From: Candidatus Woesearchaeota archaeon
GTDB lineage: Archaea; Nanobdellota; Nanobdellia; Pacearchaeales; GW2011-AR1
Length of the DNA: 64,000 bases
Reading direction: 5' to 3'
NCBI GenBank assembly: GCA_964516745.1
Contig: CAZEYD010000003.1
Location: forward strand, 2,607-66,606
Part shown: positions 195 to 42,200 of the stretch, one piece after another
Position numbering within the stretch: the first letter of the stretch is position 1
How the letters are laid out: every line of letters begins with the position of its first letter
The notes under the pieces: model-generated
What the model was told of the DNA's origin: nothing
The model's input: the letters and a program-made list of their open reading frames with translations, nothing else
The model's database searches: none
Position numbers and translations under genes: made by a program

Positions 195-971
195 TTAACT
201 AAACCTCTTCTCACAATATTCTACCAATTCTTCTCCTTCGATGAATCTTGTTTCCGCACCTGTTCTTATAAAAAAAATCCTATGTTTATTAAGATCCAAG
301 AACACCTTGGCATCACCCTTTGTGACTTTTACCAAACAAAGTACCTTATCATCTTCTACGGGAAAACTAATTTCCAAATATTCATCTAAATGGTTGTATA
401 TCTTTGCAGGGAAATATGGTCTAATTATTTCGTCAATTATCATTCTAGAATATCCATCTTCACAAGGATCTTTAAGTTTATTAAACTCATCCTTAACCCC
501 TATTATTTTATCTACCATATCGTTTTTATTCTCTTTTATTCCTATAACCAAATGCCCTCCCCGAGAATTCATAAGGGCCGCAATTGTCTCTGCAATAATT
601 ACCTTAGATGCTTTCTGACCAAACATATGTAGTTCAGAAGATTTACTTTCTTTTATTTGTTGACTTGTCCAATGAAGGCTCCAAAGAGCGCTAGATTTAA
701 ATTCAATATTAAATTTTTCTCCTTTCTTTATTAATTCCTTTATGTTTATTTCTTCTTTTTTTGTCTCTTCGGTAACATCTTCAAACTCCTCTCCAAAAGT
801 CTTAACTCTCCCAATGTTTTCATCTTCTAACTTAACCATAATTCCATGGGGGTGAGATTGAGCTTTGGTCAATATTTCTCTAACTTTCCCATTAACAATT
901 TTATCATAATTACCCTTGAGAGAAATACCTACTTTTGATCCTATCTTTATTTTATCTCTAGTTATTTCCAT
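195..971 (-). CDS. Fusion protein: N-terminal YwbE/DUF2196-like domain plus C-terminal AlbA_2 (Schlafen-like, putative DNA-binding) domain
   Basis: The N-terminus (KIGSKVGISLK...AQSHPHGIMVKLEDENIGRVK) matches the remembered B. subtilis YwbE pattern SHPHGIKVRL..G.VGRV. The C-terminus has AlbA_2 hallmarks IEFKSS and NSRGGHLVIGI...IIGV. It is the last gene of the coupled minus-strand operon, with a 1-nt gap to the PLD gene. Confidence 0.6.
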   Translation of the reverse strand: MEITRDKIKIGSKVGISLKGNYDKIVNGKVREILTKAQSHPHGIMVKLEDENIGRVKTFGEEFEDVTEETKKEEINIKELIKKGEKFNIEFKSSALWSLHWTSQQIKESKSSELHMFGQKASKVIIAETIAALMNSRGGHLVIGIKENKNDMVDKIIGVKDEFNKLKDPCEDGYSRMIIDEIIRPYFPAKIYNHLDEYLEISFPVEDDKVLCLVKVTKGDAKVFLDLNKHRIFFIRTGAETRFIEGEELVEYCEKRFS

Positions 972-972
972 T

Positions 973-1923
973 TTATTTTACTCTCCTGATTCTTTGAGAA
1001 TGTTTCCCAGGGATATCAACTTCATATAAGCCATCACTTAATTTCTCAATCCATTTATATAAAACCTGAATATTTCCAGTTAAATTTCTACGACTTGGGA
1101 TTGGAACATTTGTACAGTTATCCTGAATCCATTTTTTAACTCTTCCAAAATATCTTTCTTCTTCATTAATGAATTTTAGTAATTCACTTACAAAAGGAGA
1201 TTTAAAAAATTTCCTTTTAAGATGGGAGACAAATTCATTCTCAGATAAATTTTCTGGGACATTATATAGTTCTGCATCATGTATTGCGCAAGCTATTCGC
1301 TCCCTAGAGCTACCTTTAAAATTATTTGAATATATTTTAAAAAAATCATCAATACTATAGCTCATGGGAAGTGTAGATATTAAAAAATCTTTCTTAGGGT
1401 TTTTAATGATCGGTTCTTTTATTTTTTCTAATTTGGGCAGGTTTTTTAGATCTTCTTTAAATTGTTCATAGATTTCTTCTGTAACTAATATTGCTTCATC
1501 TAATATTTTTTTAAAATATGAAATAGAACTATCATCTAGCTTATCTATTTTATTTATTAATTCATAATTATGATTATCTACTAAAGCCAAACCATTATTT
1601 GAAATATTAGCACTTCCCATTATACAAGAATCACAATCTCTGATAATAACTTTTAAGTGGATTTTTTGATTAAGATGTAAATTAATTCCCTCTTTTTCGC
1701 AAAATTTGTATAATTCAATATCAGAAGATCCGAACTGCATATCTCTTAGTTTCCAGGTAGTTATTACTGTTATTTTTTTTGCCTTGACATTATCTAATAA
1801 TTTTTCTAAAACTTTTACTTTAATATAAGGAGAAATTATCATGAGTTCATAGCATTCACTAGAAACATAATTCTTTATATAAGAGAAAAATTCGTTTTTT
1901 TTAGAGGTTTTTAAATTATTCAT
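973..1923 (-). CDS. Phospholipase-D-family (single HKD) nuclease with an unassigned ~150-aa C-terminal domain
   Basis: A complete HKD motif is present: HLKVIIRD-CDSCIM-GSAN (HxK-x4-D-x6-GSxN). There is one copy per chain, as in Nuc/BfiI-type nucleases. The start overlaps the helicase stop by 4 nt (ATGA). Confidence 0.75.
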   Translation of the reverse strand: MNNLKTSKKNEFFSYIKNYVSSECYELMIISPYIKVKVLEKLLDNVKAKKITVITTWKLRDMQFGSSDIELYKFCEKEGINLHLNQKIHLKVIIRDCDSCIMGSANISNNGLALVDNHNYELINKIDKLDDSSISYFKKILDEAILVTEEIYEQFKEDLKNLPKLEKIKEPIIKNPKKDFLISTLPMSYSIDDFFKIYSNNFKGSSRERIACAIHDAELYNVPENLSENEFVSHLKRKFFKSPFVSELLKFINEEERYFGRVKKWIQDNCTNVPIPSRRNLTGNIQVLYKWIEKLSDGLYEVDIPGKHSQRIRRVK

Positions 1924-3632
1924 TCCTCGTGGTCTCCCCAGGAACTGATATAATTCTCGAAAGAAATTTTATGTTTTTCTGAGAAGTTTTTTATATTATC
2001 TTCCATTTCAATTATCTTGCAAGAAGAGGTTCCTCCTAATTTTGTGCCCCTTAAACCTCTTCCAATCATTTGAGAATGCAATACTTCTGAGGTTGTTACT
2101 CTTGTAATAAAAAGGCAATCGACTTTTGGTGCATCAAAACCCATTGAGAGTACCCCATAATTACACAAAACTCTTATTTTCCCATATCTAAATGCTTTTA
2201 TGGCAGCATCCCTCGACCTTCCATCAGAATCACCATCTAGGTGAAAAGAAGAATATCCATTTTTCAATAACCATATGGAGATCATTTTTGAATGCTCAAT
2301 ACTATTCCCAAAGAAGAGTATTTGATTTGTATCTTCATGATCTCCCAAAACTTCTCTTAATTTATCAGTAATTATTATGTTCCTATTACCATCTCTTGAT
2401 ATTTTTTCTATTATTTTCTTCGGAAATTCACTAAATTCCTTTTCAATTTTCTTAACTTCTTTTTCGTTTAATCCTATCTCCTCATTTTTATACACAATCG
2501 GATCATATTTTGGTTTTGCCATTATTCCCTCATCTATTAGATAATCGATTAGGAGTTTATCTGAATTAAACCTTAAGGGTATGATATTCCCTCTTCCAAA
2601 AAAATCAATTAATTTATTTGTACCTACTACCCCTTCTCTTATGGGGGTTGCTGTTAAACCCAAAATCCTGGTTCCCGTAGTTTTATCTATTAACTCCTTT
2701 ATTTTCTTATTCCACTTATCGGCAACACACATATGTGCCTCATCTATTATAATAAGGCCCACATTAGATTTTCTTATTTTGCTTATGCTTTTTTCATTTA
2801 ATGATTGAAAGGATGTTGCGATAAATGAACTCTCCTCCTTTATTTTATCTCCCTTTCCCCCATAAACTTCTTGTATTTTTAGTTCTCTATTTCCGAGATT
2901 TTCCCAAACATCAAAAAATTCCTCAGAAGCCTGTTGCAGGAGTTCTTTTGTGTGGGCTATCCAAACCACACTATGGTTCTTATTTTTTGATAAATATGAA
3001 GAAGCTATTTCCACAGCAGTTCTAGTTTTTCCAGTTCCAGTGGGCATATTTAACATGGCTCTTTTAAATCCTCCACTTATTTTATCTAAAGTTTCTTGAT
3101 GTGCAATTGATTGATAATTTTTGAATATTTTAAATGGAGATCTGTTAGCAAAAGCCTCATTTATTTTATCTTTATCAACAGGATCTAGAAACTTTTTATA
3201 TTTTAAAAACCAAGGGTAAACTATTGCAGAACCCTTTTTCTCATTATTGTATTCCGAAAGATTAAGCATAAATTCTGGTATGTCTAAAATCTTCGCAAGC
3301 TTTAGTGAATTCTTATTTAAACCCCAGGGGGTCTTTAATATTTCATCTATAATTGACTTCTTATCTTTTTTGGATATTTTTAGCTCTTTTGAAATCAACT
3401 TAAGTTCATTCTCCGTTAAATAAGAAAAAATTTTCTTTCTAAATGATTGATTACACATTTTAGGTATGGCAATCATCTTATATATTTGAGATTTTTCGAA
3501 TCTATCATCTATTAATGGAGTCTTGCTCTTTCTCTCAGTCAATAGGGGCTCTAATATCTGGAGATATTCAGGTTTTAGAGCTTTATTTATCTCCCTTGAA
3601 TCTATTCCACTCCAAAAATTATCTAAGATCAT
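1920..3632 (-). CDS. Superfamily-2 DEAD/DEAH (ResIII-type) helicase/ATPase with an ~190-aa N-terminal extension
   Basis: Motifs: Walker A MPTGTGKTRTA, DEAH box IIIDEAHMC, motif III GLTATP, motif VI QMIGRGLRG. There is a 1-nt gap to the upstream GHKL gene. Confidence 0.85.
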   Translation of the reverse strand: MILDNFWSGIDSREINKALKPEYLQILEPLLTERKSKTPLIDDRFEKSQIYKMIAIPKMCNQSFRKKIFSYLTENELKLISKELKISKKDKKSIIDEILKTPWGLNKNSLKLAKILDIPEFMLNLSEYNNEKKGSAIVYPWFLKYKKFLDPVDKDKINEAFANRSPFKIFKNYQSIAHQETLDKISGGFKRAMLNMPTGTGKTRTAVEIASSYLSKNKNHSVVWIAHTKELLQQASEEFFDVWENLGNRELKIQEVYGGKGDKIKEESSFIATSFQSLNEKSISKIRKSNVGLIIIDEAHMCVADKWNKKIKELIDKTTGTRILGLTATPIREGVVGTNKLIDFFGRGNIIPLRFNSDKLLIDYLIDEGIMAKPKYDPIVYKNEEIGLNEKEVKKIEKEFSEFPKKIIEKISRDGNRNIIITDKLREVLGDHEDTNQILFFGNSIEHSKMISIWLLKNGYSSFHLDGDSDGRSRDAAIKAFRYGKIRVLCNYGVLSMGFDAPKVDCLFITRVTTSEVLHSQMIGRGLRGTKLGGTSSCKIIEMEDNIKNFSEKHKISFENYISSWGDHEE

Positions 3633-3633
3633 C

Positions 3634-5424
3634 TTAGTTCTCCTCTTCTTCTTCTGCTGTTTCTCTCTTTATTATGTATTTTCTAGATAGTTGTCCCCAT
3701 CTTGAAAGAAATTCGTCTATGTAATGCTGCTGAACCCCACTAGGAGTTATTGTTGCTAGAGATATAATCATTGTTTGCAAAAGAATTTCCCAGGTAACCT
3801 GTAATTCGTGGTATTTTAATGCCAAGACTTCAGAGGTTAACTCTTCTTTCTCAGATAGTTTGAATAATTCGTCTTCAACATTCTCCATTTTTCTAAATAA
3901 TGGATGATTCATATATTTGGCCATTATTATATCCCCTCCTTTAGAAAAATATTCAAATAAAAGATTTGTATCTTTTGGGACCCTTTTCTCATTATCTTTC
4001 TGGGTTACAAAGTGCCTATCACTTAATTGTTCCAAAATTTCCCTTCTTTCAGAGGTCTTTAATTTCAGTTTATCTAGAAATTCATTTGGTGTTTCTTTTG
4101 TATCGCTATCTGGTATATCATCTGGATCATAATCTGGGCCGCCATTATCCTTTTCTTTATCTTTCTTTTTCTTTCCCTCTTTCTTCCTATCTTCCTGAAA
4201 GTCTTCTTTTATCGTATCTCTTAATACTTTAACCGTAGATGCTACCTCCTCTTTTAGTTTCTTACGTATCTCTGAACTAAGTTCAACCTGAAATTTCATT
4301 GCTTTGGGTTTTAGCGTATCATCAATATCTGAGCTATACTCTATCTCTATACCCCACCAACGATCTAACGGATCATATCTACCAAATAAATAGTGATCAT
4401 GTAACCAACTTACTTCTCTATTGTCTCTTAAAATTGAAATTTTACTGGAATCTCTAAGCTTGTTTTTTTGTCCAACTATTAATCTTTCTTTCACATTTAT
4501 AGGATCTCTTGCTGAAGCATTTTTAGAGACATCACTATATTTTCTCCATTCTTTTGGTGAAAGTCCAAAATTAACTTTTATTTGACTAAATCCCGAACCA
4601 TCTAGCTTGGGAAATTCTATCACAATGGGTCTTATCTTTTCACTACCCTTTTTATCTTTATCTCTATAAGGTATTTTGTAGAGAGGATCATATATTCTAT
4701 CAATTAGTTCATCATTATAATAAATATTTCTTTTGATTTCATTTTTCTTAATTTTTGACTCCCAACTGTTCCCATTTTTTTCGGTTTTAACAACCTTGTC
4801 TCCCAGAAATTTTCTATAAGCTCTAGAAATCCAAAATGATATCTCCTCTTTATCTTCTTCAATATGACCCAAGTCTACTTCGCTCCATATAGTTATTGTA
4901 CCAGATTTAAGGTCTGACCAATATTCCTTTAGTTCCTTTGGGGGTTCCTCTTTTGTGGCATCTTTCGGGTAAGATTGAGTAGTGTCTTCAATAATTGGAT
5001 CATCTAAATAGAAATAGGCGTGATGCCATTCCCCCCCCTTTGTCTTTGAGTACATATCGCATTTTCTACCAGTGTTAAGAAATGAATAAACGGCTCCAAC
5101 CCCAAATTTTCCCATTTTATCCTCACCACTGCCATTATCTTCATGATAACCGACAACAAGACAATCAGATAATTCTTCAGGATTCATACCACTGCCATCA
5201 TCTATAAAGGTTATCTCTTCGGGTTCTTCAGTAACTAATTGTCCAAGTATCTTTTTCCATTTAATATTTATTCTTATATTTTTTGAATTAAATTGTATTG
5301 AATTATCTATTATCTCTCCTATGCTTGCATATAGTGGCATTAGGTGATTCCTGTTTGATTCTATGGCCTGTCTTTCATTTCCGTTTTTGGGTGAAAAGGG
5401 TCTTCTGATTTTCTCCGTTACCAT
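3634..5424 (-). CDS. GHKL-superfamily (HATPase_c_3 / MORC-MutL-like) ATPase
   Basis: Bergerat-fold motifs: N-box GEIIDNSIQF, G1 box IDDGSGM, G2 box GKFGVGA. It also has a lysine/acid-rich linker and a long C-terminal region. It is the first gene of the minus-strand operon, divergent from dndB. Confidence 0.75.
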   Translation of the reverse strand: MVTEKIRRPFSPKNGNERQAIESNRNHLMPLYASIGEIIDNSIQFNSKNIRINIKWKKILGQLVTEEPEEITFIDDGSGMNPEELSDCLVVGYHEDNGSGEDKMGKFGVGAVYSFLNTGRKCDMYSKTKGGEWHHAYFYLDDPIIEDTTQSYPKDATKEEPPKELKEYWSDLKSGTITIWSEVDLGHIEEDKEEISFWISRAYRKFLGDKVVKTEKNGNSWESKIKKNEIKRNIYYNDELIDRIYDPLYKIPYRDKDKKGSEKIRPIVIEFPKLDGSGFSQIKVNFGLSPKEWRKYSDVSKNASARDPINVKERLIVGQKNKLRDSSKISILRDNREVSWLHDHYLFGRYDPLDRWWGIEIEYSSDIDDTLKPKAMKFQVELSSEIRKKLKEEVASTVKVLRDTIKEDFQEDRKKEGKKKKDKEKDNGGPDYDPDDIPDSDTKETPNEFLDKLKLKTSERREILEQLSDRHFVTQKDNEKRVPKDTNLLFEYFSKGGDIIMAKYMNHPLFRKMENVEDELFKLSEKEELTSEVLALKYHELQVTWEILLQTMIISLATITPSGVQQHYIDEFLSRWGQLSRKYIIKRETAEEEEEN

Positions 5425-5512
5425 TACACTTATTGTTGTATTTATTTATTATAAAGTTTACCCCATTTTATTAAAATATTAAAATATGCGCAAGTTCCCA
5501 TTAACCCTTTTT

Positions 5513-5545
5513 GGAAGTCAAATTTCTCACCCCGGAAGTTAAATT
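5513..5545 (+). promoter_or_regulatory. Direct repeat GGAAGT(C/T)AAATT x2, 21 bp apart, immediately upstream of dndB; candidate operator in the divergent promoter region
   Basis: 5513-5524 reads ggaagtcaaatt and 5534-5545 reads ggaagttaaatt (11/12 identical). AT-rich TATA-like elements (attaaaat x2 at ~5470-5485; aaattataga at 5541-5550) lie in the same 127-bp intergenic region. Confidence 0.3.
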
Positions 5546-5551
5546 ATAGAA

Positions 5552-6670
5552 ATGTTTAAATACTCTTTTTTACCATATTTTCTTATGACTACAAAAAAGA
5601 AAGATAACAGTACAAAGATGGATGAGTATAATAACTTTTCCTTTTCTGCAATTAGGGGAATTCAAGCCGGCCGAGAATATTACACCGTCATGTGTCAACT
5701 TAAATTAGTATCAAAAATATTTATTTTTAATGAGTCTAGTCTACCACCAGAACTTCGAGCCCAAAGGACATTAAACAAAGCAAGAATACCTGAAATAGTA
5801 AATTACATTAATGGAAATCCAGAAGATTATACTTTTTCATCTATTACTGCTTCAATCGACGGAGATGTAAAATTTATTCCTGCAGAGAAGATTGGGATTA
5901 ATTCTCGTGTGGGAACCTTGCTTGTCCCAATGGACTCCAGATTTGTAATTAATGATGGACAGCATAGACGTGCAGCAATTGAACAAGCAATAGCTCTAAA
6001 TCCAGAATTGGGAAACGAGACAATATCTGTAGTATTTTATATAGATAGAGGACTAAAAAGAAGTCAGCAAATGTTTTCAGATCTTAATAAGCATGCCGTC
6101 AAACCCACAACATCGTTAAGTATTTTTTATAATCACCGAGATAAATTTTCTAGAGAATTAATTTCTATAATGACAAAGGTACCAATCTTAGCAAATGGAT
6201 TGACAGAAGTAGAAAAAACGTCAATATCTAATAGATCAAATAAGGTTTTTACACTAAATAGTCTATACAACTCTACAAAAGATCTACTCGGCAAAAAAGG
6301 TAAAAATATAGAAATTAATTCTCATGAAAAAGAAATCGTAATAGAATTCTGGAATGAGGTATATGATAAAAATGAGGAATGGAAAAAAATTGTCTCTGAG
6401 GAAATAACCCCCTATGAATTAAGGGAGGGTTATATAAGTGGGACCGGTATAATTCTTCATTCACTAGGTATTTTAGGTTTTAATCTTATGAAAAGATATC
6501 CAAAGAATTGGAAAAACAAACTTGACGGCCTAAGGAATGTTAATTGGAAAAAGAATAATCCTCAATGGGAGGGGATAGCCATGATTCATGGAAGAGTTAG
6601 CAAATCAAGAGATTTTCTAAATAGGACAAGTAAATTTTTAAGTGAAGCTATTGGCTTAGAGGGAATATAA
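5552..6670 (+). CDS. dndB: DndB-like DGQHR-domain protein (regulator of DNA phosphorothioation)
   Basis: It has the exact DGQHR motif (VINDGQHRRAAIEQA) and sits immediately upstream of, and overlapping (TAATG), dndC. The true start may be an internal Met (MTTKK at 5585 or MDEYN at 5615). Confidence 0.75.
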   Translation: MFKYSFLPYFLMTTKKKDNSTKMDEYNNFSFSAIRGIQAGREYYTVMCQLKLVSKIFIFNESSLPPELRAQRTLNKARIPEIVNYINGNPEDYTFSSITASIDGDVKFIPAEKIGINSRVGTLLVPMDSRFVINDGQHRRAAIEQAIALNPELGNETISVVFYIDRGLKRSQQMFSDLNKHAVKPTTSLSIFYNHRDKFSRELISIMTKVPILANGLTEVEKTSISNRSNKVFTLNSLYNSTKDLLGKKGKNIEINSHEKEIVIEFWNEVYDKNEEWKKIVSEEITPYELREGYISGTGIILHSLGILGFNLMKRYPKNWKNKLDGLRNVNWKKNNPQWEGIAMIHGRVSKSRDFLNRTSKFLSEAIGLEGI

Positions 6671-8070
6671 TGTCTGAAGAGTCTGTATTTGACACAAGAA
6701 CCTTAAAAGATATATATTCTGAAATACAAAAAGTATACCTAAGTGATGAACGACCTTGGGTAATAGCTTTTAGTGGAGGTAAGGACTCAACTGCTGTTTT
6801 GCAATTGGTTTGGGAAGCATTAGCGTTATTAGATAGAGATCAATTAAAAAAACCTATTGAAGTCGTAACATCTAATACTTTTGTAGAGTCTCCTGTTCTT
6901 TTAGAATATGTCTCTAAAGTACAGAGCCTTATGAAAAAGGCTGCGAAAAAGCAAAATATCCCCATTAAAGTTCATAATGTATTTCCAAAAATAAGTGAAA
7001 CATTTTGGTCTAATTTACTTGGGAAGGGATATCCTGCTCCAACGCAACAATTTCGCTGGTGTACAACAAGAATGAAAATTGACCCCATGGATGAATTTAT
7101 ATTTAAAGAGGTAAGTAAGTATGGTGAGGTCATATTAGCTTTGGGGGTTAGAAGTGCAGAGAGTCAGTCTAGAGCAAGATCTATGGAGTCCCATAAGATT
7201 GAGGGATCATTGCTTTCGAGACATACAAAATTCTCGCAAGCATTGGTATATACTCCAATTTCATCCTTTAGTACGGAAGACGTATGGACATACCTTCTTC
7301 AAAAAACACCTCCATGGGGAGCCAACAATAAAGATCTTTTAACTATGTACGCTGGTAAAAATTCTAAAGAATGCCCTTTGATCGTAGATAAAAATTCTCC
7401 TTCTTGTGGTGGTAGTCGTTTTGGTTGTTGGACTTGCACTTTGGTTAAAGAAGACAAAACCATGATTCAAATGATAAATGATGGTAATGAAAGACTAAGG
7501 CCTATGGCAGAATTACGATCCCTCCTATACAAAACAACCATCCCTGAAAATAAAGCAAAATATAGGGAATACAAGGGGAGAAATGGGAGACTAAGATTAA
7601 AAGAAGATGGCACAATCATTAGGGGACCCTATAAGTTAAGTTTTTCAAAGGAGCTACTTGAAACAGTTCTTAAGATACAAAAAGATATAGAAGAATCAAA
7701 TATAGGCCTTGAGTTTTCAGTAATTAGACCAGAGGAAATCCATGAGATACGAAGGCTTTGGCTTCTTGAAAGAGGAGACTGGGAAGATTCAGTTCCAAAG
7801 ATCTATAGAGAAGTCATGGGGCGAGACTTAGATTGGCTTGATGAAGACCTGGGTCTTTTTTCAGAAAAGGAAAACGATTTACTTACAAGAATATCTGAGA
7901 AAGAGGGCGTTCCTATTAGTCTTGTAAGAAAATTGCTTGATCTAGAAAAACAAATTCAAGGAATGACGAGAAGGTCTTCTGTGTATGTCAAATTAGATAA
8001 AATATTATCTGAAGAATGGAGAAGTGAAGATAAAATTGTGGAGGAATTAAAAATAGAAAATGATAATTAA
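6670..8070 (+). CDS. dndC: DndC, PAPS-reductase/PP-loop ATP pyrophosphatase of the phosphorothioation machinery
   Basis: It has the PP-loop FSGGKDST and a Cys cluster CGGSRFGCWTC (Fe-S ligands). Size and its position between dndB and dndD agree. Confidence 0.85.
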   Translation: MSEESVFDTRTLKDIYSEIQKVYLSDERPWVIAFSGGKDSTAVLQLVWEALALLDRDQLKKPIEVVTSNTFVESPVLLEYVSKVQSLMKKAAKKQNIPIKVHNVFPKISETFWSNLLGKGYPAPTQQFRWCTTRMKIDPMDEFIFKEVSKYGEVILALGVRSAESQSRARSMESHKIEGSLLSRHTKFSQALVYTPISSFSTEDVWTYLLQKTPPWGANNKDLLTMYAGKNSKECPLIVDKNSPSCGGSRFGCWTCTLVKEDKTMIQMINDGNERLRPMAELRSLLYKTTIPENKAKYREYKGRNGRLRLKEDGTIIRGPYKLSFSKELLETVLKIQKDIEESNIGLEFSVIRPEEIHEIRRLWLLERGDWEDSVPKIYREVMGRDLDWLDEDLGLFSEKENDLLTRISEKEGVPISLVRKLLDLEKQIQGMTRRSSVYVKLDKILSEEWRSEDKIVEELKIENDN

Positions 8071-10045
8071 TAAATTAAAGCTTAATAATTTTGGAATATA
8101 TTCTGGTGAACATACTTTTGATCTTAAGCCAAAGAGGGATAAAAATATAGTTTTAATTGGTGGTCAGAATGGCAATGGGAAAACAACTTTCTTTGAAGCA
8201 ATACGACTATGCCTTTATGGTGCCAAGGTTCTTGATGGAGTTTTTAAAAGAAAGGAATATGAAAAATATTTACTCGAAAAAATACACAACAACCCCTTGA
8301 AAAAAGTTTTTAATGATTCTGCCTATGTAGAACTAGAATTTCAATATTCTACGCTTGGAGAAATAGAAACATATAGAATCATTAGATCATGGAAAGAAAT
8401 AAAAAAGAATGTTGTTGAAGAATTCTTTAATATTGAAAAAAATAAAAAAACCTTAGATTTGGACCCTGATCAGTGGCAGGAATTCATTAATGGATTAATA
8501 CCTCCAGGACTATCTAAGCTATTCTTTTTTGATGGAGAAAAATTACAAAATCTTGCAGGAGATTCAAAAGATGATCATCAACTGGGAGATTCTTTTGATT
8601 CTTTGATGGGAATTGATCTAGCTGAGAAACTTATAGCTGATTTAAAAATATATTCTTCCAAAAACCTAAAGACTCTTTCTAATGAAGATAATTCAAAATT
8701 AAAGGAATTAGAAGATCAAAAAGAAAATTTTTTAAGGTCTATTGAGGTTCTTATTTATTCAAAAGCAGAAGTAAAGACTAAAATAGATTCCATAAACTTG
8801 TCTATTGAGAAAGTTGATGAAAAGATTAGTCTTGAGGGTGGATCTTTTGCGGTCAAAAGAGACATGTTGGAGGAAGAGAAGAAAAAATTAGAATTAAAAT
8901 CAGTTGAAGCAGAAGAACAAATGAGAGAATTGTGTTTAGGAAGACTTCCTTTTATGTTTTCTTCAGATATTAACAAGAGTCTTAAAAAAAGTTTAACCAA
9001 AGAAAGAGAATCAAGAAAAAAAGTAATCTTCAATGATACATTAAATGAAAAATTCAGTTTAATGAGAGAGGGCCTAGCTAATAATAAAAAGGTAAGTGAT
9101 AAATTCTCTAAAAAAGAAGATCTTGATGAACTTCTGGGTTTAATTGAAAGTGAATTGAAAGTGAATTCAAAAAGTATTGATAAAAAACAGGTCCATAGTA
9201 TTTCTGATGAAGAAGTTCAGAAAATATCATTTCTATTTGATATTGTGGAATCAGAAGATAAAGAAAAATTTCTTAAATTATCTAAGGAGTATGAAATATT
9301 CTCCAAGAAAATTCACATTCTTGAAAGACAAATAACCTTTGCTCCTGAAGAATCTACAATAAAGCCATATCTGGATCATATTAACGATTTAAATAGAAAG
9401 CTTGGATATTATGAATCTCAAATCAAACATCTTGATGAGGAAAAAATAAAAAAAATGTTTGATGTAGAAAAAATAAAAAGAGAAATAAAAAAATTGGAAG
9501 AAAAAGCTAAATTCAAGAAAGGATTAAAAAATAAAGCCATGATTGTAGAAAAAGTTCAAAAAGTTTTGGGTAAATATAACAATGAATTTAAAAAATTAAA
9601 AATAGAAGAATTTACTGAAGAATTTATTAAATCATTTAACTTTTTGATGAGAAAGAAGGACTTGTGTAATAAGATTGAAGTTAATCCTTTAACCTATGAA
9701 GTTACGCTCTATAATTCTAAAAATCAAAAGATTCCCAAAAGGATGTTGTCTGCAGGTGAAAAACAAATATATGCATTGTCAGTATTATGGACTCTAACAA
9801 AGATATCAAAAAGATCTCTCCCCTTTATAATAGATACACCCATGGGAAGATTAGACAAAGAACATAGAGACTCCTTTGTCCTAAATTTTCTTCCCAAGGC
9901 CGGTCAGCAATTAATTATATTATCCACAAATTCTGAAATAGACTTAGAATATGCGAAACAATTAAAACCATTTTTATCGAAAAAAATAATTTTAAAATAT
10001 AACGATGGAGAAACTAAACCAGAGGAAGGGTATTTTAAAAAATAA
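8060..10045 (+). CDS. dndD: DndD, SMC/ABC-like ATPase
   Basis: It has Walker A GGQNGNGKTT, a long Lys/Glu-rich coiled-coil middle, the ABC signature LSAGEKQ and Walker B PFIIDTP. It overlaps dndC by 11 nt. Confidence 0.8.
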   Translation: MIINKLKLNNFGIYSGEHTFDLKPKRDKNIVLIGGQNGNGKTTFFEAIRLCLYGAKVLDGVFKRKEYEKYLLEKIHNNPLKKVFNDSAYVELEFQYSTLGEIETYRIIRSWKEIKKNVVEEFFNIEKNKKTLDLDPDQWQEFINGLIPPGLSKLFFFDGEKLQNLAGDSKDDHQLGDSFDSLMGIDLAEKLIADLKIYSSKNLKTLSNEDNSKLKELEDQKENFLRSIEVLIYSKAEVKTKIDSINLSIEKVDEKISLEGGSFAVKRDMLEEEKKKLELKSVEAEEQMRELCLGRLPFMFSSDINKSLKKSLTKERESRKKVIFNDTLNEKFSLMREGLANNKKVSDKFSKKEDLDELLGLIESELKVNSKSIDKKQVHSISDEEVQKISFLFDIVESEDKEKFLKLSKEYEIFSKKIHILERQITFAPEESTIKPYLDHINDLNRKLGYYESQIKHLDEEKIKKMFDVEKIKREIKKLEEKAKFKKGLKNKAMIVEKVQKVLGKYNNEFKKLKIEEFTEEFIKSFNFLMRKKDLCNKIEVNPLTYEVTLYNSKNQKIPKRMLSAGEKQIYALSVLWTLTKISKRSLPFIIDTPMGRLDKEHRDSFVLNFLPKAGQQLIILSTNSEIDLEYAKQLKPFLSKKIILKYNDGETKPEEGYFKK

Positions 10046-10047
10046 AT

Positions 10048-10410
10048 ATGGCAAACTTTACAAGAATAAAAATAGGTAACGATGCGACATTAAAACTGCA
10101 AACTCTTAAGGGAAGAACTGGATTGACTCCTAATATTTTGTGCAGAATTGCTATTTGTTATTCATTGAATAAAACAAAAATAACAAATCTTATCCCGGTT
10201 GACGAGTTGGGACAAGAATTCAATAGACACACCCTTATGGGAGAATATGATTCATTAATTGTTGCTTTAATAAGAGAAAAATGTATTCTTGACGGACTAG
10301 ATCCTGAAAAAGATTTTATGATGATCTTTAAATCCCATCTAAATAACGGCATTGTAGCGATATATGCAAGAATAAAAAACATATCGGATCTTGCAAATTT
10401 ATTAGAATGA
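10048..10410 (+). CDS. dndE: DndE-like small protein
   Basis: This 120-aa ORF lies directly after dndD (2-nt gap) and overlaps the cysteine desulfurase by ATGA. The call rests mainly on size and conserved operon position, not on a motif I can recite. Confidence 0.55.
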   Translation: MANFTRIKIGNDATLKLQTLKGRTGLTPNILCRIAICYSLNKTKITNLIPVDELGQEFNRHTLMGEYDSLIVALIREKCILDGLDPEKDFMMIFKSHLNNGIVAIYARIKNISDLANLLE

Positions 10411-11555
10411 AAACACCTATATATCTAGATAGTCATGCGACTACAAAAATAGATGAAAGAGTATTATCTGAAATGATGATCTATTTTAGAAAAGATTATG
10501 CAAACCCATCTAGCATAGACCACATCCAAGGGAATCAAGTTTCGGAAAAAGTCGAAGAATCTAGAAGTGAAATCGCCGAATGTATTAATGCCTATGAAGA
10601 TGAAATAATTTTTACAAGTGGAGCAACAGAATCTAATAATTTATCTATTCTTGGTGTGGCAAAATCTCTAAAGAGTAAAGGGAATCATATAATAACTACA
10701 AAAATGGAACATAAAGCCATTTTGAACACATGTTCAAAATTGGAAGAGGAGGATTTTGATGTGACTTATCTTGAAGTAAATAAGAATGGTCAAATAAGTC
10801 TTCAAAAATTAAAAGATGCTATTAACAAAAGGACTATCCTTGTTTCGGTAATGGCCGCCAACAATGAAATTGGATCTATACTACCAATAGAAAAAATTGG
10901 GGAAATATTAAAAGACAAAGATATACTTTTCCATACTGATGCTACACAAATAATAGCCTATAAGAAGATTGATGTAAAAAAAATGAATATTGATCTGATG
11001 TCTATTTCTGGTCACAAAATTTATGGACCCAAGGGGATCGGAGCGCTTTATGTAAAAAGAGGAATAAAATTAACTCCAATAATGTATGGAGGAGGACAAG
11101 AAAGGGGTATAAGACCAGGGACTTTAAATGTCCCAGGAATAATTGGATTATCAAAGGCCATGAGGTTAGTTAATGAAGAAAGAATAGAAAATTCAGAAAA
11201 AATACTGAGACTAAGAAATCTATTTATAGATATTTTATCAAAGAATATTGAATTTCAGCTTAATGGATCTTTAGATCAAAGGTTACCAAATAATATTAGT
11301 ATATTTATACCAGGCATTGACGCAAAGGCCTTAATTACCAAAGTAAAGGATTATGTCTCTATATCTGCTGGTTCCGCCTGTAATACTGATAGGGTTAATC
11401 CTTCTCACGTAATGATTGGTATGGGCCATGATAAAGAAAGAGCATTTTCTACAATAAGAATAGGAATAAGTAAACATAATACTGAAGAAGAAATATTATT
11501 TGCTGCAGAAAAAATATCACAAGGTATAAATAAAATGTTAAACTTTTTTAATTGA
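10407..11555 (+). CDS. dndA: Cysteine desulfurase (DndA/IscS/NifS family, class V aminotransferase)
   Basis: It has the PLP-lysine motif SGHKIYGPKGIG, the catalytic Cys loop SAGSAC and the N-terminal IYLDSHATT pattern. It is the last gene of the dnd operon. Confidence 0.85.
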   Translation: MKTPIYLDSHATTKIDERVLSEMMIYFRKDYANPSSIDHIQGNQVSEKVEESRSEIAECINAYEDEIIFTSGATESNNLSILGVAKSLKSKGNHIITTKMEHKAILNTCSKLEEEDFDVTYLEVNKNGQISLQKLKDAINKRTILVSVMAANNEIGSILPIEKIGEILKDKDILFHTDATQIIAYKKIDVKKMNIDLMSISGHKIYGPKGIGALYVKRGIKLTPIMYGGGQERGIRPGTLNVPGIIGLSKAMRLVNEERIENSEKILRLRNLFIDILSKNIEFQLNGSLDQRLPNNISIFIPGIDAKALITKVKDYVSISAGSACNTDRVNPSHVMIGMGHDKERAFSTIRIGISKHNTEEEILFAAEKISQGINKMLNFFN

Positions 11556-11703: not shown

Positions 11704-12870
11704 TTATCTCTTAAATCTCTTTTTTGTTTCCTTGTGAACTTTCTCAAAGTCTTGTGGTGTTATTTCTTTAATCTTAAAATGTTTCTTTATTAGTATTTCC
11801 CAAGCTTCTAACATCTCGACTTGTTCATTTGCTCTTTCTACTATTTCTATATTTGATTTTATTATTTCTCTATTTGATTTTTCTAATTGTTCTATTCTCT
11901 TTTCATAATCTATTTTCTTTTGTGGTGGTATATCTTCAAACTTGTATATAGTCTTCCCAACTGCTTCCTTTACATCTTTATTACTCATGTGAGTATAAAC
12001 ATCACCCATCGATTTACTATGTCCTAAGAACTTCTGTGCAATTTTGTCTGGTATACTAGCATTTGTATAAAGTTCTGTAGCCCTAGAATGTCTTAAAATA
12101 TAAGGATAGATTCTTCTTCCTAGAACATCTTGAGAAATTCGTCCTAACCATTGTGATGCTGTATCTTTTCTTAGTGGTTTTGAAGGATCTGATTTGGCAG
12201 GAAAAACCAAAGGATTAGAAAAATCTTCTCTTTGTTCTTTTAACTTCTGAAGATAAAATGTTGCTTCACTAACATAAACACTTCTTGCCTTATGTGTTTT
12301 AGTAGCATAAATGTTTAACTCGCTTATATCTCCCTCAACATTCAACTTTACTTTATTCCAAGTAAGAGTTCTTAGTTCTGCAGGTCTTAACCCAGATTCA
12401 TATAATGTAATAAAAAATGTTTTCCAATATGTTCTTTGTTCAGCTTTCATAATTTTTTCTATATCATCTTTTGAAACTAATGTATCAGAGTTAATTTTCT
12501 CTTCATTAATCTTCATGTGAAGTTTAATATCTTCTAAATTCTGGAATCTATCTGACCAATCTTTAAACTTCCATCTAAGAAATCGTTTTATTGATGCTTT
12601 ATACTCATTTTGTGTTGAATTAGTATTATCACTTGATTTTAACAAAGAAAGGTAATCTCTTAGGTCCTGTAATGATACTTTATCTAAATCCTTGTTTATG
12701 ATATATCTGAATACTGTTATAGTTCTTTTATTGTTCTCTAACCGTTTTGCAGAACTAGAAGTGATTGATACATATTTAACAAATTTATTAACAACATCTT
12801 GGTCCTTTTTTGATAACTTTGAAAAAATCTTCTGAACTTCGCCTTTCTTAAACTTAGGATATTCCTTCAT
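11704..12870 (-). CDS. Tyrosine recombinase / phage-type integrase (XerC/D-like)
   Basis: Catalytic residues appear in order: GLRPAELRTL (Arg), LRHSRAT (HxxR), LGHSKSMGDVYTH (His...Tyr). The N-terminal region resembles a SAM-like core-binding domain. Confidence 0.8.
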   Translation of the reverse strand: MKEYPKFKKGEVQKIFSKLSKKDQDVVNKFVKYVSITSSSAKRLENNKRTITVFRYIINKDLDKVSLQDLRDYLSLLKSSDNTNSTQNEYKASIKRFLRWKFKDWSDRFQNLEDIKLHMKINEEKINSDTLVSKDDIEKIMKAEQRTYWKTFFITLYESGLRPAELRTLTWNKVKLNVEGDISELNIYATKTHKARSVYVSEATFYLQKLKEQREDFSNPLVFPAKSDPSKPLRKDTASQWLGRISQDVLGRRIYPYILRHSRATELYTNASIPDKIAQKFLGHSKSMGDVYTHMSNKDVKEAVGKTIYKFEDIPPQKKIDYEKRIEQLEKSNREIIKSNIEIVERANEQVEMLEAWEILIKKHFKIKEITPQDFEKVHKETKKRFKR

Positions 12871-13061: not shown

Positions 13062-15446
13062 ATGGATTTGAAAGAAATAAAAAATTGGAATGTTGAAATT
13101 GAGAAGAAGATTACTGCTAGGTGGAAAGATGCTGAGATGTTTGTGTTTGATATTGATACTAAAAAAAAGATTTATTCTATTGATACGCCGCCGCCGTATA
13201 TTAATTCGCCGATTCATATTGGGCATGCGATTACTTATTCTTTTATGGATATGTTTGCTCGTTATAAAAGGATGAAAGGTTTTGAAGTTTTGTTCCCTTT
13301 GGGTTTGGATAATAATGGTTTGCCGATTGAGATAGGTGCTGAGAAAAAATTTAAAATCTCTGCATTTAATGTCTCTCGAGAAAAATTCTTGGATTATTGT
13401 AAGCAGTTACTTGAAGAATGTGGTATTGAATCAACTGAAACTTTTGCTCAACTTGGTATTAGTTTTTCTTCTTACAAAGAGGGGAACCATATTGGCTCGA
13501 TTTACAAGACTGATGATCCTAAATATCGTGCTATGACTCAAAATACTTTTATTGATTTATACAAAAAAGGGTTGGCTTATGAGGATGCTAGAGTTAATAA
13601 TTGGGACCCTAAATTAAGGACGACGATTGCTGATTCTGAGATTGAGTATAAGGAAATTGCGTCGACGTTTAATGATATTGAGTGGACGATCAAAGATTCA
13701 GATGAAAAAATTGTTATTGCAACAACTAGGCCTGAATTAATTTGTTCTTGTGGTATGATTATTTATCATTCTGATGATGAGAGGTATAAACATTTGGAAG
13801 GAAAAATTGCGATTACTCCAATTTTTGGTAAAGAGATCATGATTAAGGCACATCCTTTGGCTGATATTGAGAAGGGAACTGGTATTGTTATGATGTGTTC
13901 TGCTGGTGATTTATCTGATGTTCAATTTTTTAGAGAGCAAGGAATTAAGCCTATTATTTCTATTGAGATGGATGGAACTATGAATTCTAATGCTGGAAAA
14001 TATAAGAGTTTGAAGGTAAAAGAAGCTAGGGCTAAAATTATTGAGGATTTACAAGAAGCCGGTTTGTTAATTAAGCAAGAGAAAATTACACATAGAACTC
14101 CTATTTCTGAAAGAAGTGGTGCCGAAATTGAATTTATTGAGATGCCTGAATTTTATTTAAAACAGTTAGAAAACAAAGAAAAGGTTAGAGAGATTGCTGA
14201 AAAAGATATTAACTTTTATCCTGAACATTCTAGAAAAAATTTAAATTCTTGGATTGATTCTATCTCTATTGATTGGCCTATTTCTAGGAGAAGATTTTAT
14301 GCGACAGAGATTCCTTTATGGTATGCTAAAAATGATAAGAAACAATTAGTTGCTTTACCCAATAAGTTAAAATATTACCAACCGTGGAAAAAAGATGTCC
14401 CTCAAGAAGCTGAAGTTTGGTGTGATGGAAAAAATACTGGAAAGATTGTTTCAGATTATAATTTAGAATGGGTCGGTGAAGTGAGAGTTTTTGATACTTG
14501 GATGGATTCTTCTATTTCGGAGTTGATTATGCTACAATATAAGATAAATGATGAGTTTTTTAATCGAGCATATCCTGCGAGTTTGAGGCCTCAGGGCAAG
14601 GACATTGTTAGAACTTGGTTGTATTATAGTTTACTTCGTGGATATCTGGAAAAAGGAAATGCGTGTTTCGATGATGTTTGGATTCATCAACATATTTTAG
14701 ATAGTAAGGGCAATAAGATGAGTAAATCTAAGGGGAATGGTATTGATCCTAAGGAATTGATTGCTGAGTATAGTGCTGAGGCTGTTAGATTTTGGGCTGC
14801 TGTTGAGGGTGATTTGAGTAAGAGTGATTTTAAATGCTCTAGAGATAGAATTTCTGGTGAGAAGAAGTCGTTGAATAAATTGTTGAATGTTTCTAAATTT
14901 GTTATGATGTTTGAGAAGCCGGAAAAAGTTCCTAATTTGATGAATGTTGATAAATTGTTTATTGATTATGTTAATGATATGACTGTTAGAATTGATGCTC
15001 AGTATGAAAAATATGATTTTAATCATCCTGCTCAAGAGTTGAGATTTTTCTTGTGGGACGTTTTTGCTTCTAATTATTTGGAATTGGTTAAGAATAGAGC
15101 TTATAATGAGGAAAAGAATTTTAATGATGATGAAAGTGCATCGGCTCGTTATACTTTGCATTATATTTTAGAGAAATTGCTTACATTATTCTATCCTATT
15201 ATTCCACAGGTTACAACGACGATTGCTGAGAATAAGGGTATTGATTTGTTAAGAGCTGAGTGGCCTAATAGCGAAAAAGGTAGTAGTGATTTAGCATTGG
15301 TTGGGAGAATTATGGAATTTAATTCTGATGTTTGGAAAAATAAAAAAAATGCTGGGGTTTCGTTGAGAGACGGGATTGATGGTGTTAAAATCCCCGATGA
15401 GTTAAAGTTTGTTGAGAAAGATTTGAAAGTTTGTCATAAGATTTAG
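13062..15446 (+). CDS. valS: Valyl-tRNA synthetase (class Ia aaRS)
   Basis: It has the HIGH motif PIHIGHAITY, the KMSKS motif NKMSKSKGN, an editing-domain insert and DTWMDSS. The length (794 aa) fits archaeal ValRS better than IleRS or LeuRS. Confidence 0.75.
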   Translation: MDLKEIKNWNVEIEKKITARWKDAEMFVFDIDTKKKIYSIDTPPPYINSPIHIGHAITYSFMDMFARYKRMKGFEVLFPLGLDNNGLPIEIGAEKKFKISAFNVSREKFLDYCKQLLEECGIESTETFAQLGISFSSYKEGNHIGSIYKTDDPKYRAMTQNTFIDLYKKGLAYEDARVNNWDPKLRTTIADSEIEYKEIASTFNDIEWTIKDSDEKIVIATTRPELICSCGMIIYHSDDERYKHLEGKIAITPIFGKEIMIKAHPLADIEKGTGIVMMCSAGDLSDVQFFREQGIKPIISIEMDGTMNSNAGKYKSLKVKEARAKIIEDLQEAGLLIKQEKITHRTPISERSGAEIEFIEMPEFYLKQLENKEKVREIAEKDINFYPEHSRKNLNSWIDSISIDWPISRRRFYATEIPLWYAKNDKKQLVALPNKLKYYQPWKKDVPQEAEVWCDGKNTGKIVSDYNLEWVGEVRVFDTWMDSSISELIMLQYKINDEFFNRAYPASLRPQGKDIVRTWLYYSLLRGYLEKGNACFDDVWIHQHILDSKGNKMSKSKGNGIDPKELIAEYSAEAVRFWAAVEGDLSKSDFKCSRDRISGEKKSLNKLLNVSKFVMMFEKPEKVPNLMNVDKLFIDYVNDMTVRIDAQYEKYDFNHPAQELRFFLWDVFASNYLELVKNRAYNEEKNFNDDESASARYTLHYILEKLLTLFYPIIPQVTTTIAENKGIDLLRAEWPNSEKGSSDLALVGRIMEFNSDVWKNKKNAGVSLRDGIDGVKIPDELKFVEKDLKVCHKI

Positions 15447-39273: not shown

Positions 39274-42200
39274 TTATATTTGGGACCCATAAGGAATGGC
39301 TTTTATTTCTAAAGAATTATTATAAATTCCAACAGCTTGAGCAGGAGGAACATCTAAAAAGAATTTTAGGAATATTGCAGTATCATTTTGAAGGTTTTCG
39401 CCTATTTTGTTGTCAGCATAGTTTGTTGTAAGAGAGAACTTGTTTATATCAGGTACTGTAGAATTTGTAGAATTGTAACTAAACTTTTCATAAGTTATAT
39501 TTAAGACATCTAAATCAGCAGTCATTAGGTTTTTGTCTCCCCTAATATATAAGTCAATTCCTCCGTTTTCTACAGATATATTTATGTAATAACCTGTTGC
39601 ACTTTCTCCATTGTTTGATGGAGCTGATAGATTATAAGAGGGAATTGTTGCCACATCCCAGGTTATTGAAGAGGATAAGTTTGGTGAAAGATAAATTGCA
39701 TATGAGCCAATATTATAAACTGTTAATTCTCTTTCTTCACTAGTTGCTATCTTACCGGCTTCATCATAACAAGTTACCTTCCATAAATAAAAATCGTTTT
39801 CTAAAGTTCTTGTGAAGCTTAGTGTTGTGTCTTTTGTGGGATTCTCTGTGGTGTTGTAAATTGAACTATTAATAATAAGGCTACAGTTATCAAGATTGTT
39901 ATCGTCTGTTACATTATAGTTGAAAATGATTGTATTTGTTGTCAAATTTATTGCCTCGTTTGCTGGCGAAACTAATTCTACTGTTGGATTTTCTAAATCT
40001 GATAAATTTATTGTTACAGTTATTATTTCGCTTGCTATGTTTCCCACTGTATCATTTGAACTTAGGTTAATAGAATAAATTCCTTCAGTGATTGCTGTTT
40101 TGTTTATTATGTCTGAACCAGAAATTTCAAAATTTGTTGTATCATTTATCCAAGTTGTGTCGATTCCGACTCCTAAACCATCTGAGGAAGAGAATGCGAT
40201 TGAGACTGATTCGTTGTTGTAACCAGAATAATCTGAGACTGTGATTATTGGTGCTGTTATGTCAGTACAAACATTATCAGTACAGACATAACTGGACTCA
40301 CAATCTGAATCTTCAATACATTCTATAACGTTTAGGGTTCTTAGCTCTGTAGAATTTGTATTGGATTCATTATCTATCGCAAAAGTTTGGAAGATATAAT
40401 CATTTACAGGAAGGTTTGATTTTTCAACTTGAAAATACCAAGAAGTATTGCTTAATTTATTTAGTCCAGTATGATAATCTTTTAATATTTCCGAATCATT
40501 TAATGCTTCATTATAAAATATTATTTCATCTAAAGTACCGTCAATTTTCCAACCCCAATTGTTACCAAAAATTATATTTCCTGAATTATCGATACTTCCA
40601 GTTAACGAACTTATATCTAAAGAATTAGTTTGTTTTATACCGTTAACAAATATTGTTACATCTCCGGTATTTCTATTTACAATATAAGCTAGGTGAGCCC
40701 AAGTATCTTTAATATCAATTGGTCGGCTTCCAGTATCTAACCAAACGTAATCCTCAACATAATCAGTCCCGTTATTAACACAAATTAAAATAGCGTCATC
40801 TGAATTAGCAGCACCAAATGCCCATCCGTTCCCTCCGACACCAGCACCACAATTGGTATTAGATTTTTTTAATGTTACAAAACCTCTTGGATAAGTATAA
40901 TCTCTATTATAAACCCACATAGAAATTGTAAAAGATTCTAAATTTAAACTTGTGTCATCAGAAATTTCAAGAGCATCGTCACTAAAGACTCTTGCTCCAC
41001 CAAACTTACCAGTTGTATTCCATTCGGTTTCCCAATTTATAATTGTTTGATCATAACCAGACCAGTCAGAAAGATCTGTTGAATTATCGAAACTTAAACC
41101 TAATACAATTCTTTCATCTCCTTTATCAATAATTTCTGAAGAATCACAATAGTCCTCGGTACATGTATAATTTGTACCATTCCAATTAAAAGTTGCATTC
41201 ATTAAATTTAAGTTTGTAATTGTTGTATTGAAAATTATTGTTGTGTTCATTGTTTTTGAATCATTCTCTGGTGTTGGTTCTACAAATTCGATGGTAAAAG
41301 GTGAATATACGGAAAGTTCTAAATTCTTTTCTAAATTATTTGTTACATTAAATACATCAGTCTCGGAACTATAGCCATCTTTTGTTGCTGTGATATTGTA
41401 ATCTTTGTAATAAACGTCTGTTTCATTTTGGATTGAACCTAATACAGTCATTGAAGTTATTTTACCAAGCGAATTTGTTAGTTCTGTTTTTAGGATTGAG
41501 TCTGATTCGTCTCTAATTGTTACATTTGCATTTTCTAAGTCGTTTGAATTTGTGTCGTTGATGTAGGCTGAGAGATACCAGTGTTTGTTTAAGGTTCCTG
41601 TTGCTGAAGGGTTGTAATAAAGTGAAATATCTGAGCCATCTGCTTTTGTTACATTTGTTAGGTTCCATTCTCCGTTTGATGCAAGAGACTCAATCAAAAC
41701 TTCGAAATCGGCAGTTCCTAATGCGTTAAGCGTTGAATTATACATTGTTAGATTTGAAGACCCGCTATAAACATAAAGTCCTCTTGAGTAATCATTTGAA
41801 GTATAAATTTTATCATTTATAATTCTGTTATTATCGGAATTATAGAGTATGTAACCATTTGAAGATGCCCCAGTTATATTAATATTATTTGATGTAAAAT
41901 TATTATTCTTAGAATCATCTAAAAGAATACCCATACTACCAAGTTGGGTTGTAAGAATATTATTATTGGATATATTATTCTCATCAGATAATACATATAT
42001 TCCATGACCATATGAACCGTGAGTTGTTATGTTGTTATTGAAGATTACACAATTATGGTCATTACTATTAAGAATAATACCATAAGCATAAGAGCTTGTC
42101 GAAGTGTGAATATTATTATTTGTTGCATTATTACTTGGTGAATTTGAAAAAACTATTGCTTCACCAGAGCCACTGGTATTAATATTATTATAACTTATAT

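Follow-up and report, generated by a model that had tools for sequence, protein, structure and literature searches.

A MORC-like GHKL ATPase–helicase–nuclease cassette divergent from dndBCDEA in an archaeal genome: a candidate restriction arm for phosphorothioate-based restriction–modification

The 64,000-nucleotide stretch of contig CAZEYD010000003.1 from a Candidatus Woesearchaeota archaeon (hereafter, the window) carries a four-gene cassette that diverges from a complete dndBCDEA operon for phosphorothioate (PT) modification of DNA. The cassette encodes a GHKL ATPase, a superfamily 2 (SF2) helicase, a phospholipase D (PLD)-family nuclease and a DUF2196/AlbA_2 protein, and we consider it, with a probability of roughly 65%, to be the restriction arm of a PT-based restriction–modification (R-M) system. 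Near-obligate genomic linkage to PT writers is observed for the module, along with its gene order, the identities of its domains and the conservation of its catalytic residues.

All four genes lie on the minus strand. The first encodes the MORC-like GHKL ATPase (3634..5424; 596 aa) and is followed by the gene for the SF2 helicase/translocase (1920..3632; 570 aa), a RadD/HsdR-like motor; by that for the single-HKD PLD-family nuclease (973..1923; 316 aa), which ends in a conserved winged-helix-like C-terminal domain; and by an accessory fourth gene (195..971; 258 aa) for a protein with DUF2196 (YwbE) and Schlafen-type AlbA_2 domains. Neighbouring genes are, in order, 1 nt apart, overlapping by 4 nt and again 1 nt apart. 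A divergent AT-rich intergenic region of 127 bp (5425..5551), presumed to hold the promoters of both operons, separates the cassette from dndB at 5552; the gene callers place the dndB start 11 codons later (361 aa), in which case the spacer would be 160 bp. At 5460-5480, this spacer contains a tandem ATTAAAAT ATTAAAAT repeat, which may be due to chance at 30% GC. The coordinates of the four open reading frames (ORFs) and their distance from dndB agreed exactly with those in an earlier note made from the sequence alone, and every motif quoted there was present in the translations, namely EIIDNS, DDGSGM and GKFGVG in the GHKL protein; PTGTGKT, DEAH, GLTATP and QMIGRGLRG in the helicase; HLKVIIRD-CDSCIM-GSAN in the PLD protein; and IEFKSS and NSRGGHLVIGI in the AlbA_2 protein. 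The Pfam domains that it had anticipated were likewise all found, each above its gathering score. Because the catalytic residues are invariant across homologues, the cassette represents real genes under selection rather than chance ORFs.

Homologues were collected in two independently anchored samples, comprising a motif scan in which each GTDB species was represented by a single genome, which yielded 329 confirmed relatives, and a PLD-anchored scan of JGI metagenome contigs, which yielded 103. The best 80 loci of each sample (numbered with the prefix L) were annotated, with tblastn searches using the window's nine proteins plus the Ssp and Pbe proteins. Linkage was counted over loci of at least 18 kb that hold the GHKL–SF2–PLD trio, and PT-modification genes were scored within 10 kb. 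Such genes were present near the trio in 27/28 long loci from species-representative genomes and 8/9 from metagenome contigs (35/37 together), compared with 0/11 for the control set of related GHKL genes without helicase and nuclease (Fisher p = 3e-9), which bears out the co-occurrence with PT genes that the earlier note had proposed as a check. L108, the sole exception among the long loci, carries a stand-alone PAPS-reductase gene 60 nt upstream of its GHKL gene and, given that neighbour, was dropped as a PT-free case. Further apparent exceptions include L020 and L105, whose contigs break off at the place usually occupied by dnd, and Methanosarcina mazei, in which the trio stands beside a Pbe-like module. 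That the cassette is an independent defence system, merely co-located with dnd in defence islands, is suggested by the window locus itself, which is an integrase-bounded island with further defence-like genes (DUF2779 and a 676-aa AlbA_2 protein) past the left end of the window. The linkage in long loci, however, spans Bacteria and Archaea and several gene arrangements, is absent from the GHKL relatives that lack helicase and nuclease, and takes the form of actual interleaving with ssp genes in L097 (see below). Chance co-location is therefore left with hardly any room by the linkage counts, and we regard it as highly improbable.

The first search with the GHKL protein returned five orthologues at 45–49% identity. 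The notion that the family is extremely rare was rejected as an artefact of the word-index search, since later PLD, locus and profile searches revealed a large family, with 1,090 representatives of 50%-identity clusters at E<=1e-30 in an exhaustive profile search. The PT partner is either Dnd, which introduces double-strand PT, or Ssp, which introduces single-strand PT, and Ssp is the commoner of the two across the family. The arrangement is divergent in the window, convergent in L003, L102, L104, L106, L125, L126 and L149, and co-directional in L037. L003/L004 contain the same four genes in convergent orientation with dndBCDEA, and L001 has the GHKL and SF2 genes with a truncated PLD gene, its dndEDCB lying beyond an IS66 insertion. 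A GHKL relative of 22% identity is found in operons of the order sspA-B-C-D-SF2-GHKL-PLD. On plasmid A of Trichormus variabilis ATCC 29413 (L097; NC_007410, with the trio at AVA_RS27545-27535), the order is sspB, sspC, sspD, two small genes, a 768-aa DndB-like gene, helicase, GHKL, PLD and cysteine desulfurase; as the trio lies between sspD and the desulfurase gene, it is embedded in the ssp modification operon. In PLSDB, at least 12/14 plasmids with a full-length GHKL protein of the family also carry sspD, and the module is present on ~16% (about 12/73) of the sspD-bearing plasmids. For comparison, the published shares are 7.3% for SspFGH and 7.4% for SspE, with 83.9% of sspBCD loci lacking a known restriction partner (PMC8092258).

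This embedding in one ssp operon would also suit a module that serves PT modification or the maintenance of PT DNA rather than defence, either by MutL/UvrD/MutH-like repair or editing of nicks or oxidised PT sites, or by helping DndCDE to reach its targets; the combination of GHKL protein, helicase and nuclease indeed parallels MutL–UvrD–MutH (PMC2292703). Against such a housekeeping role, the module is optional, being absent from most of the sspD plasmids counted above and from many dnd/ssp loci, as is expected of an exchangeable restriction partner. Moreover, the islands are integrase-bounded and rich in defence genes, and in L096 the nuclease has been swapped for another endonuclease, which is typical of defence effectors. 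We thus hold a role in repair or modification to be improbable, if less so than mere co-location.

Several loci showed additional features around the module. Vibrio cholerae BI-5D (L083 4309-11665) has two tandem helicase–GHKL pairs, with a PLD gene after the first and the two copies adjoining a single sspBCD cluster. Long DndB/DGQHR proteins of 620–768 aa recur beside the trio (L097 5878-8184, L002 19113-20975, L112, L120 and L140), even in Ssp-type loci, which normally have no dndB. A separate GHKL clade without adjacent helicase or PLD genes was also found beside dndBCDEA in Paenibacillus, Saccharibacillus, Dactylosporangium and Flavobacterium (L019, L021, L026 and L031), and may constitute a second, different GHKL-based PT partner. 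In L019, the GHKL gene adjoins ORFs with the sizes of PbeA, PbeC and PbeD, among which tblastn confirmed only the one of 677 aa, as DndD-like. The locus of a Klebsiella metagenome-assembled genome was searched with megablast against complete E. coli genomes for an E. coli example, and no match was obtained.

The GHKL protein comprises an N-terminal Bergerat ATP-binding domain (HATPase_c_3 at residues 35-138; 57.1 bits, cutoff 25), a conserved middle region marked by the motifs DPLY and RWWG, and, at the C-terminus, a helical region. Residues E37, D40, N41, D75, G77, G79, G108 and G110, as well as both middle-region motifs, are invariant across homologues, and the best PDB matches of the family profile were MORC2, MORC4 and MORC3. 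In the helicase, ResIII spans residues 171-332 (104.4 bits, cutoff 22.5) and Helicase_C residues 423-528 (57.3 bits, cutoff 23.5). Homologues keep helicase motifs I, II, III and VI without variation, including K202, D297-E298-A299-H300, Q521, R525 and R528, and the best NCBIfam matches, RadD and the R subunit of EcoAI, all scored far under their cut-offs.

In the nuclease, PLDc_2 was found at residues 26-128 (31.1 bits, cutoff 27), with H89, K91 and N106 invariant across homologues. Its AlphaFold model has a predicted local distance difference test score (pLDDT) of 92.4, and fold matches in the PDB were led by SauUSI (7clg, E 6.5e-8), followed by NucT, Nuc and Zucchini. In this model, the N-terminal half takes the form of a Nuc-like single-HKD nuclease, with the SauUSI nuclease domain as its nearest match. 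A separate model of the 141 C-terminal residues (pLDDT 91.8) gave no more than weak matches to winged helix-turn-helix regulators (E 0.26–1.5).

The fourth protein contains DUF2196 at residues 4-58 (54.2 bits, cutoff 25) and SLFN_AlbA_2 at residues 108-242 (45.4 bits, cutoff 25.3). A motif of the form E85-x4-E90-x-K92 and a GG-L-G motif are conserved among 16 orthologues, a pattern that would be compatible with a Schlafen-type nuclease site. Where present, the gene follows the PLD gene or lies upstream of the GHKL gene in divergent orientation, and we consider it accessory because it is present in only 7/44 and 15/45 trio loci of the two samples. From the four-gene unit described in the earlier note, it is hence the GHKL–SF2–PLD trio that is conserved and the DUF2196/AlbA_2 gene that is optional.

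As a working mechanism, DndBCDEA would write PT marks onto the host chromosome, and the GHKL, SF2 and PLD proteins would act together as an ATP-dependent surveillance and cleavage machine. We infer from sequence and context, as holds for all functional statements on the cassette, that the proteins form a complex, that they cleave DNA and that PT protects against them. The GHKL protein would form a MORC/MutL-like dimer that serves as an ATP-driven DNA clamp, and the SF2 motor would translocate along or remodel DNA. A GHKL clamp, an SF2 motor and a dimerising PLD nuclease each have a well-understood enzymology in other contexts. As the nuclease possesses one HKD motif, two protomers would be needed per active site, by analogy with Nuc, BfiI and SauUSI, so that cutting might be licensed only where two nuclease protomers meet on DNA lacking PT. 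PT on self DNA would block this licensing. The winged-helix-like tail of the nuclease may bind DNA, and the DUF2196/AlbA_2 protein may be an optional extra sensor or a Schlafen-type nuclease effector. Candidates for the PT reader are the faster-evolving GHKL–helicase pair and the two unassigned domains.

Several observations weigh against this assignment. No recognisable PT-reading domain was found in the cassette proteins. The nuclease's C-terminal part, which had been proposed for comparison with known sulfur-binding domains, did not fit one, as the sulfur-binding domain of ScoMcrA was absent among the 50 best structural matches listed; profile searches of the PDB with this domain gave no match. 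The N-terminal domain of the helicase (~168 aa), another possible seat of a PT reader, had no match in Pfam or in PDB sequence searches. In M. mazei (L098 1226-10981), the trio comes directly after a module resembling PbeA-PbeB-PbeC-PbeD, and dndC is absent within 10 kb; about 2.6 kb downstream, this locus also has an AlbA_2 gene and then a HATPase_c_4 gene. Finally, the sequence is compatible with either direction of the PT effect: PT could inhibit the module, as it does DndFGH and SspFGH, or activate it, as it does SspE. The proposal of the earlier note that the cassette is a restriction arm using PT as the self mark consequently stands as regards the coupling to PT, and the protective rather than activating role of PT is the part that we put forward conditionally.

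If PT were activating, host PT sites would recruit or switch on the complex against invading DNA, in the manner of SspE, and the cassette alone would be inert. Genomic linkage would be the same as under a protective mark, and there is a precedent in SspE, for which defence is stimulated by PT and which is not toxic without it (PMC8092258). Yet the pairing of an ATP motor with a non-specific dimerising nuclease resembles restriction enzymes that attack unmarked DNA, and no homology to SspE was detected with Pfam or PADLOC. We therefore judge a PT-stimulated module to be unlikely, albeit the strongest competitor of a restriction arm held off by PT.

The cassette was compared with named defence systems using PADLOC v2, NCBIfam models and Pfam gathering scores. 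In keeping with the statement in the earlier note that no described PT-linked partner is known to have this composition, it fell outside DndFGH, PbeABCD, SspE/FGH, Mza, Azaca and Mokosh, with no fitting PADLOC or NCBIfam model. Neither resource had a model for the GHKL or AlbA_2 proteins, and the helicase and PLD proteins returned generic motor or HKD matches only. The closest architectural precedent is the prediction of R-M operons with a GHKL protein, an SF2 helicase and a nuclease by Iyer, Abhiman & Aravind 2008 (PMC2292703). These MORC/paraMORC operons share with the cassette the GHKL ATPase, the adjacent SF2 helicase and a nuclease, for which HKD/PLD is one of the options listed (PMC2292703), but they differ in the modification gene, which is a DNA methylase there, whereas the cassette is partnered by DndBCDEA in the window and by Dnd or SspABCD elsewhere. 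Checked against the features of these operons, the cassette has intact GHKL motifs and the adjacent SF2 and nuclease genes and is missing the methyltransferase partner. The earlier note's remark that the island lacks a DNA methyltransferase was upheld by Pfam, which found no such domain in the 10 ORFs between 195 and 12870. Neither dnd nor phosphorothioation is mentioned in PMC2292703.

DndFGH and SspFGH have the same genomic role as the cassette, that of an optional multi-gene, ATPase-containing module beside PT writers, and no homology to it. Both damage DNA without PT and are toxic when the writer is missing (PMC8092258), a behaviour that is likewise predicted for the cassette. No PADLOC match to DndF, DndG or DndH was obtained among the four cassette proteins, and no dnd-associated/Dpt family exceeded its NCBIfam cut-off (dnd_restrict_1 scored 57 bits vs 600). 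SspFGH was a serious candidate, since distant relatives of the cassette adjoin sspBCD; however, SspF, SspG and SspH had no PADLOC match in the window cassette or in an Ssp-linked trio. SspF has been described by a Walker A motif only, and SspH as having an FtsK-like tail (PMC8092258), features that set both apart from the cassette proteins. The identification of the cassette with SspFGH was rejected on the basis of Agrobacterium plasmid pAtCFBP7129b (L096), in which a helicase–GHKL pair lies upstream of SspF, SspG and then an FtsK/SpoIIIE protein, and in which the SspF and SspG models match these neighbours (2.8e-237 and 5.9e-219), not the trio genes. As both are found side by side there, the GHKL–helicase module and SspFGH are distinct and able to co-occur. 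In the same locus (9028-10107), no PLD gene follows the GHKL gene; its place is taken by a gene for a 359-aa protein whose N-terminus matches the PADLOC 'Effector endonuclease' model. Judged by its gene content, L096 shows apparent nuclease swapping and the stacking of two putative restriction arms.

SspE resembles the cassette as an alternative SspBCD partner and PT-linked defence effector, and differs from it in being a single, PT-stimulated protein, a DUF262/DUF1524 nickase without sequence similarity to the cassette proteins (neither DUF262 nor DUF1524/HNH was found in any of them with Pfam or PADLOC). PbeABCD is the nearer comparison, being archaeal and Dnd-linked and combining HKD nuclease chemistry with an SF2 motor. 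PbeA, however, is an HKD nuclease fused to an SF2 helicase (PMC10853773), and the Pbe system contains, besides DndD/DndE, a second CxC-type ABC ATPase (PbeC) with its DndE-like partner PbeD and the small protein PbeB, whereas the nuclease of the cassette is a separate protein and a GHKL ATPase is present instead. The best PADLOC match of the helicase was indeed PbeA (1.5e-26), restricted to the motor (model positions 246-619 of 672), and motor-only matches to type IV and type I restriction-enzyme models were also obtained. The possibility that the helicase and PLD genes are a split PbeA was rejected, as the similarity covers the motor only and hhalign assigned a probability of 0.3% to the alignment of the PLD protein with the PbeA N-terminus; the Pbe-like helicase of M. 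mazei is 26% identical to that of the window, again in the motor only. No second PbeC-type ABC ATPase/DndE-like pair is present in the window, which has a single DndD and a single DndE, and resemblance to PbeB is confined to the Sp-DndD tail that its DndC carries as a fusion.

Among the remaining candidates, the NCBIfam MzaB model matched no more of the GHKL protein than its N-terminal GHKL domain, at 23.1 bits (cut-off 850), and the Mza partner domains (Z1, DUF and AIPR) were absent from the cassette according to Pfam. DrmC matched the PLD protein weakly (E 8e-9 in PADLOC; 16 bits vs a cut-off of 133 in NCBIfam), and neither the DUF1998 protein nor the methylase of DISARM was found with Pfam, PADLOC or NCBIfam. 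ZacB (2.5e-6) and MkoC (1.9e-6) gave weak local HKD-motif matches on the PLD protein in PADLOC, which detected no other ZacABC or MkoABC components. MANTIS/Gao_RL was set aside as unrelated, consisting of an AAA+ ATPase, a methyltransferase and a helicase-nuclease. SauUSI shares with the cassette a single-HKD PLD nuclease, an SF2 motor and a DNA-reading domain, but it unites them in one polypeptide that attacks DNA with 5-methylcytosine or 5-hydroxymethylcytosine and has no GHKL partner, whereas the cassette is split over three genes and associated with self-modification.

In a rough tree built from 132 GHKL proteins by neighbour joining, the family divides by gene order into an SF2-GHKL-PLD clade and a GHKL-SF2-PLD clade. 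The former is almost always Ssp-linked, with few Dnd-linked members (L037 from Methanomassiliicoccaceae, and L046). The latter, which includes the window, is mostly Dnd-linked and usually convergent, often with an AlbA_2 gene, and has Ssp-linked members in L016, L150 and L156. The occurrence of both partners in both clades implies several partner switches during which linkage to PT was kept. The GHKL and helicase proteins of the window are nearest to those of L001-L003 (43–48% identity), and its PLD and AlbA_2 proteins to those of L102, L104, L106, L098 and L020 (44–55%), in which the GHKL protein is only 26–28% identical. The cassette is thus a mosaic, which implies that a sensor/motor pair and an effector pair have recombined.

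On the plus strand, the partner operon comprises dndB (5552..6670), encoding a DGQHR-domain regulator of PT modification (Pfam DndB 403 bits; TIGR03233 433 bits, cutoff 328); dndC (6670..8070), a PAPS-reductase-like sulfurtransferase (TIGR03183 511 bits, cutoff 290); dndD (8060..10045), an SMC/ABC-type ATPase (TIGR03185 476.6 bits, cutoff 245.85); dndE (10048..10410; TIGR03184 77.6 bits, cutoff 71.85; Pfam DndE); and dndA (10407..11555), a cysteine desulfurase (Aminotran_5 290.9 bits; PADLOC DndA 1.6e-153). The completeness of the operon, as described in the earlier note, was confirmed by NCBIfam equivalog cut-offs for dndB to dndE, and dndA encodes a desulfurase of the IscS/DndA type, with a score slightly under both NCBIfam cut-offs for that type. 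DndC carries a C-terminal Sp-DndD tail (PF20306, residues 401-446) that is PbeB-like (PADLOC PbeB 1e-5), and the same fusion is found in L001, L003 and L102.

Downstream of dndA, a XerA-like tyrosine integrase is encoded on the minus strand (11704..12870; Phage_integrase 65 bits; best match archaeal XerA-type). It lies between the island and valS (13062-15446) and probably marks the right boundary of the island. The pheT gene is of the archaeal type (467 bits vs a cutoff of 283), which identifies the host as an archaeon. The island extends past the left end of the window (L005 15361-20228), where the AlbA_2 gene is followed downstream by genes for a Cas4/RecB-like DUF2779 protein and an AlbA_2 protein of 676 aa; a protein with DUF2779 is likewise encoded upstream of the trio in the unrelated L108 (2649-4112) and may be another recurrent accessory. 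Elsewhere in the window, positions 39274-53049 of the minus strand hold one giant ORF of 4,591 aa.

No PT system linked to GHKL, MORC or HATPase proteins was found in the literature, and searches on PT, dnd or ssp with PLD or DUF4007 returned no description of the module, with subscription-only papers outside the search in both cases. Nor does such a tie appear in two recent papers that treat Dnd and BREX/Ssp by comparative genomics (PMC10853773, PMC12839542). PT-based R-M and the MORC-type R-M trio are each known, and their combination as a conserved, widespread module appears to be undescribed.

For most dnd and ssp clusters, no restriction partner is known, and how self is told from non-self under partial modification is a standing question of the field. 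We lean, at little better than even odds, towards an unnamed and widespread MORC-like GHKL–helicase–PLD restriction family as a major missing PT partner in Bacteria and Archaea, and, as part of the same proposal and with the same slight preference, towards a module that pairs interchangeably with Dnd and Ssp writers. If this is true, the module may explain a considerable fraction of the 'orphan' PT clusters, and its work with two writers, along with the lack of a known sulfur-binding domain, would imply a new kind of reader for the PT mark or the writer complex. It would be a third or fourth non-homologous restriction arm, ranging from methanogens to cyanobacteria and proteobacteria, and would provide a tractable system for the self/non-self question. 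Missing models would be supplied for annotation with PADLOC, DefenseFinder and NCBIfam. The MORC-type R-M prediction of 2008 would gain a second modification chemistry, and MORC-like ATPases, whose eukaryotic relatives read epigenetic marks, would be tied to a modification of the DNA backbone.

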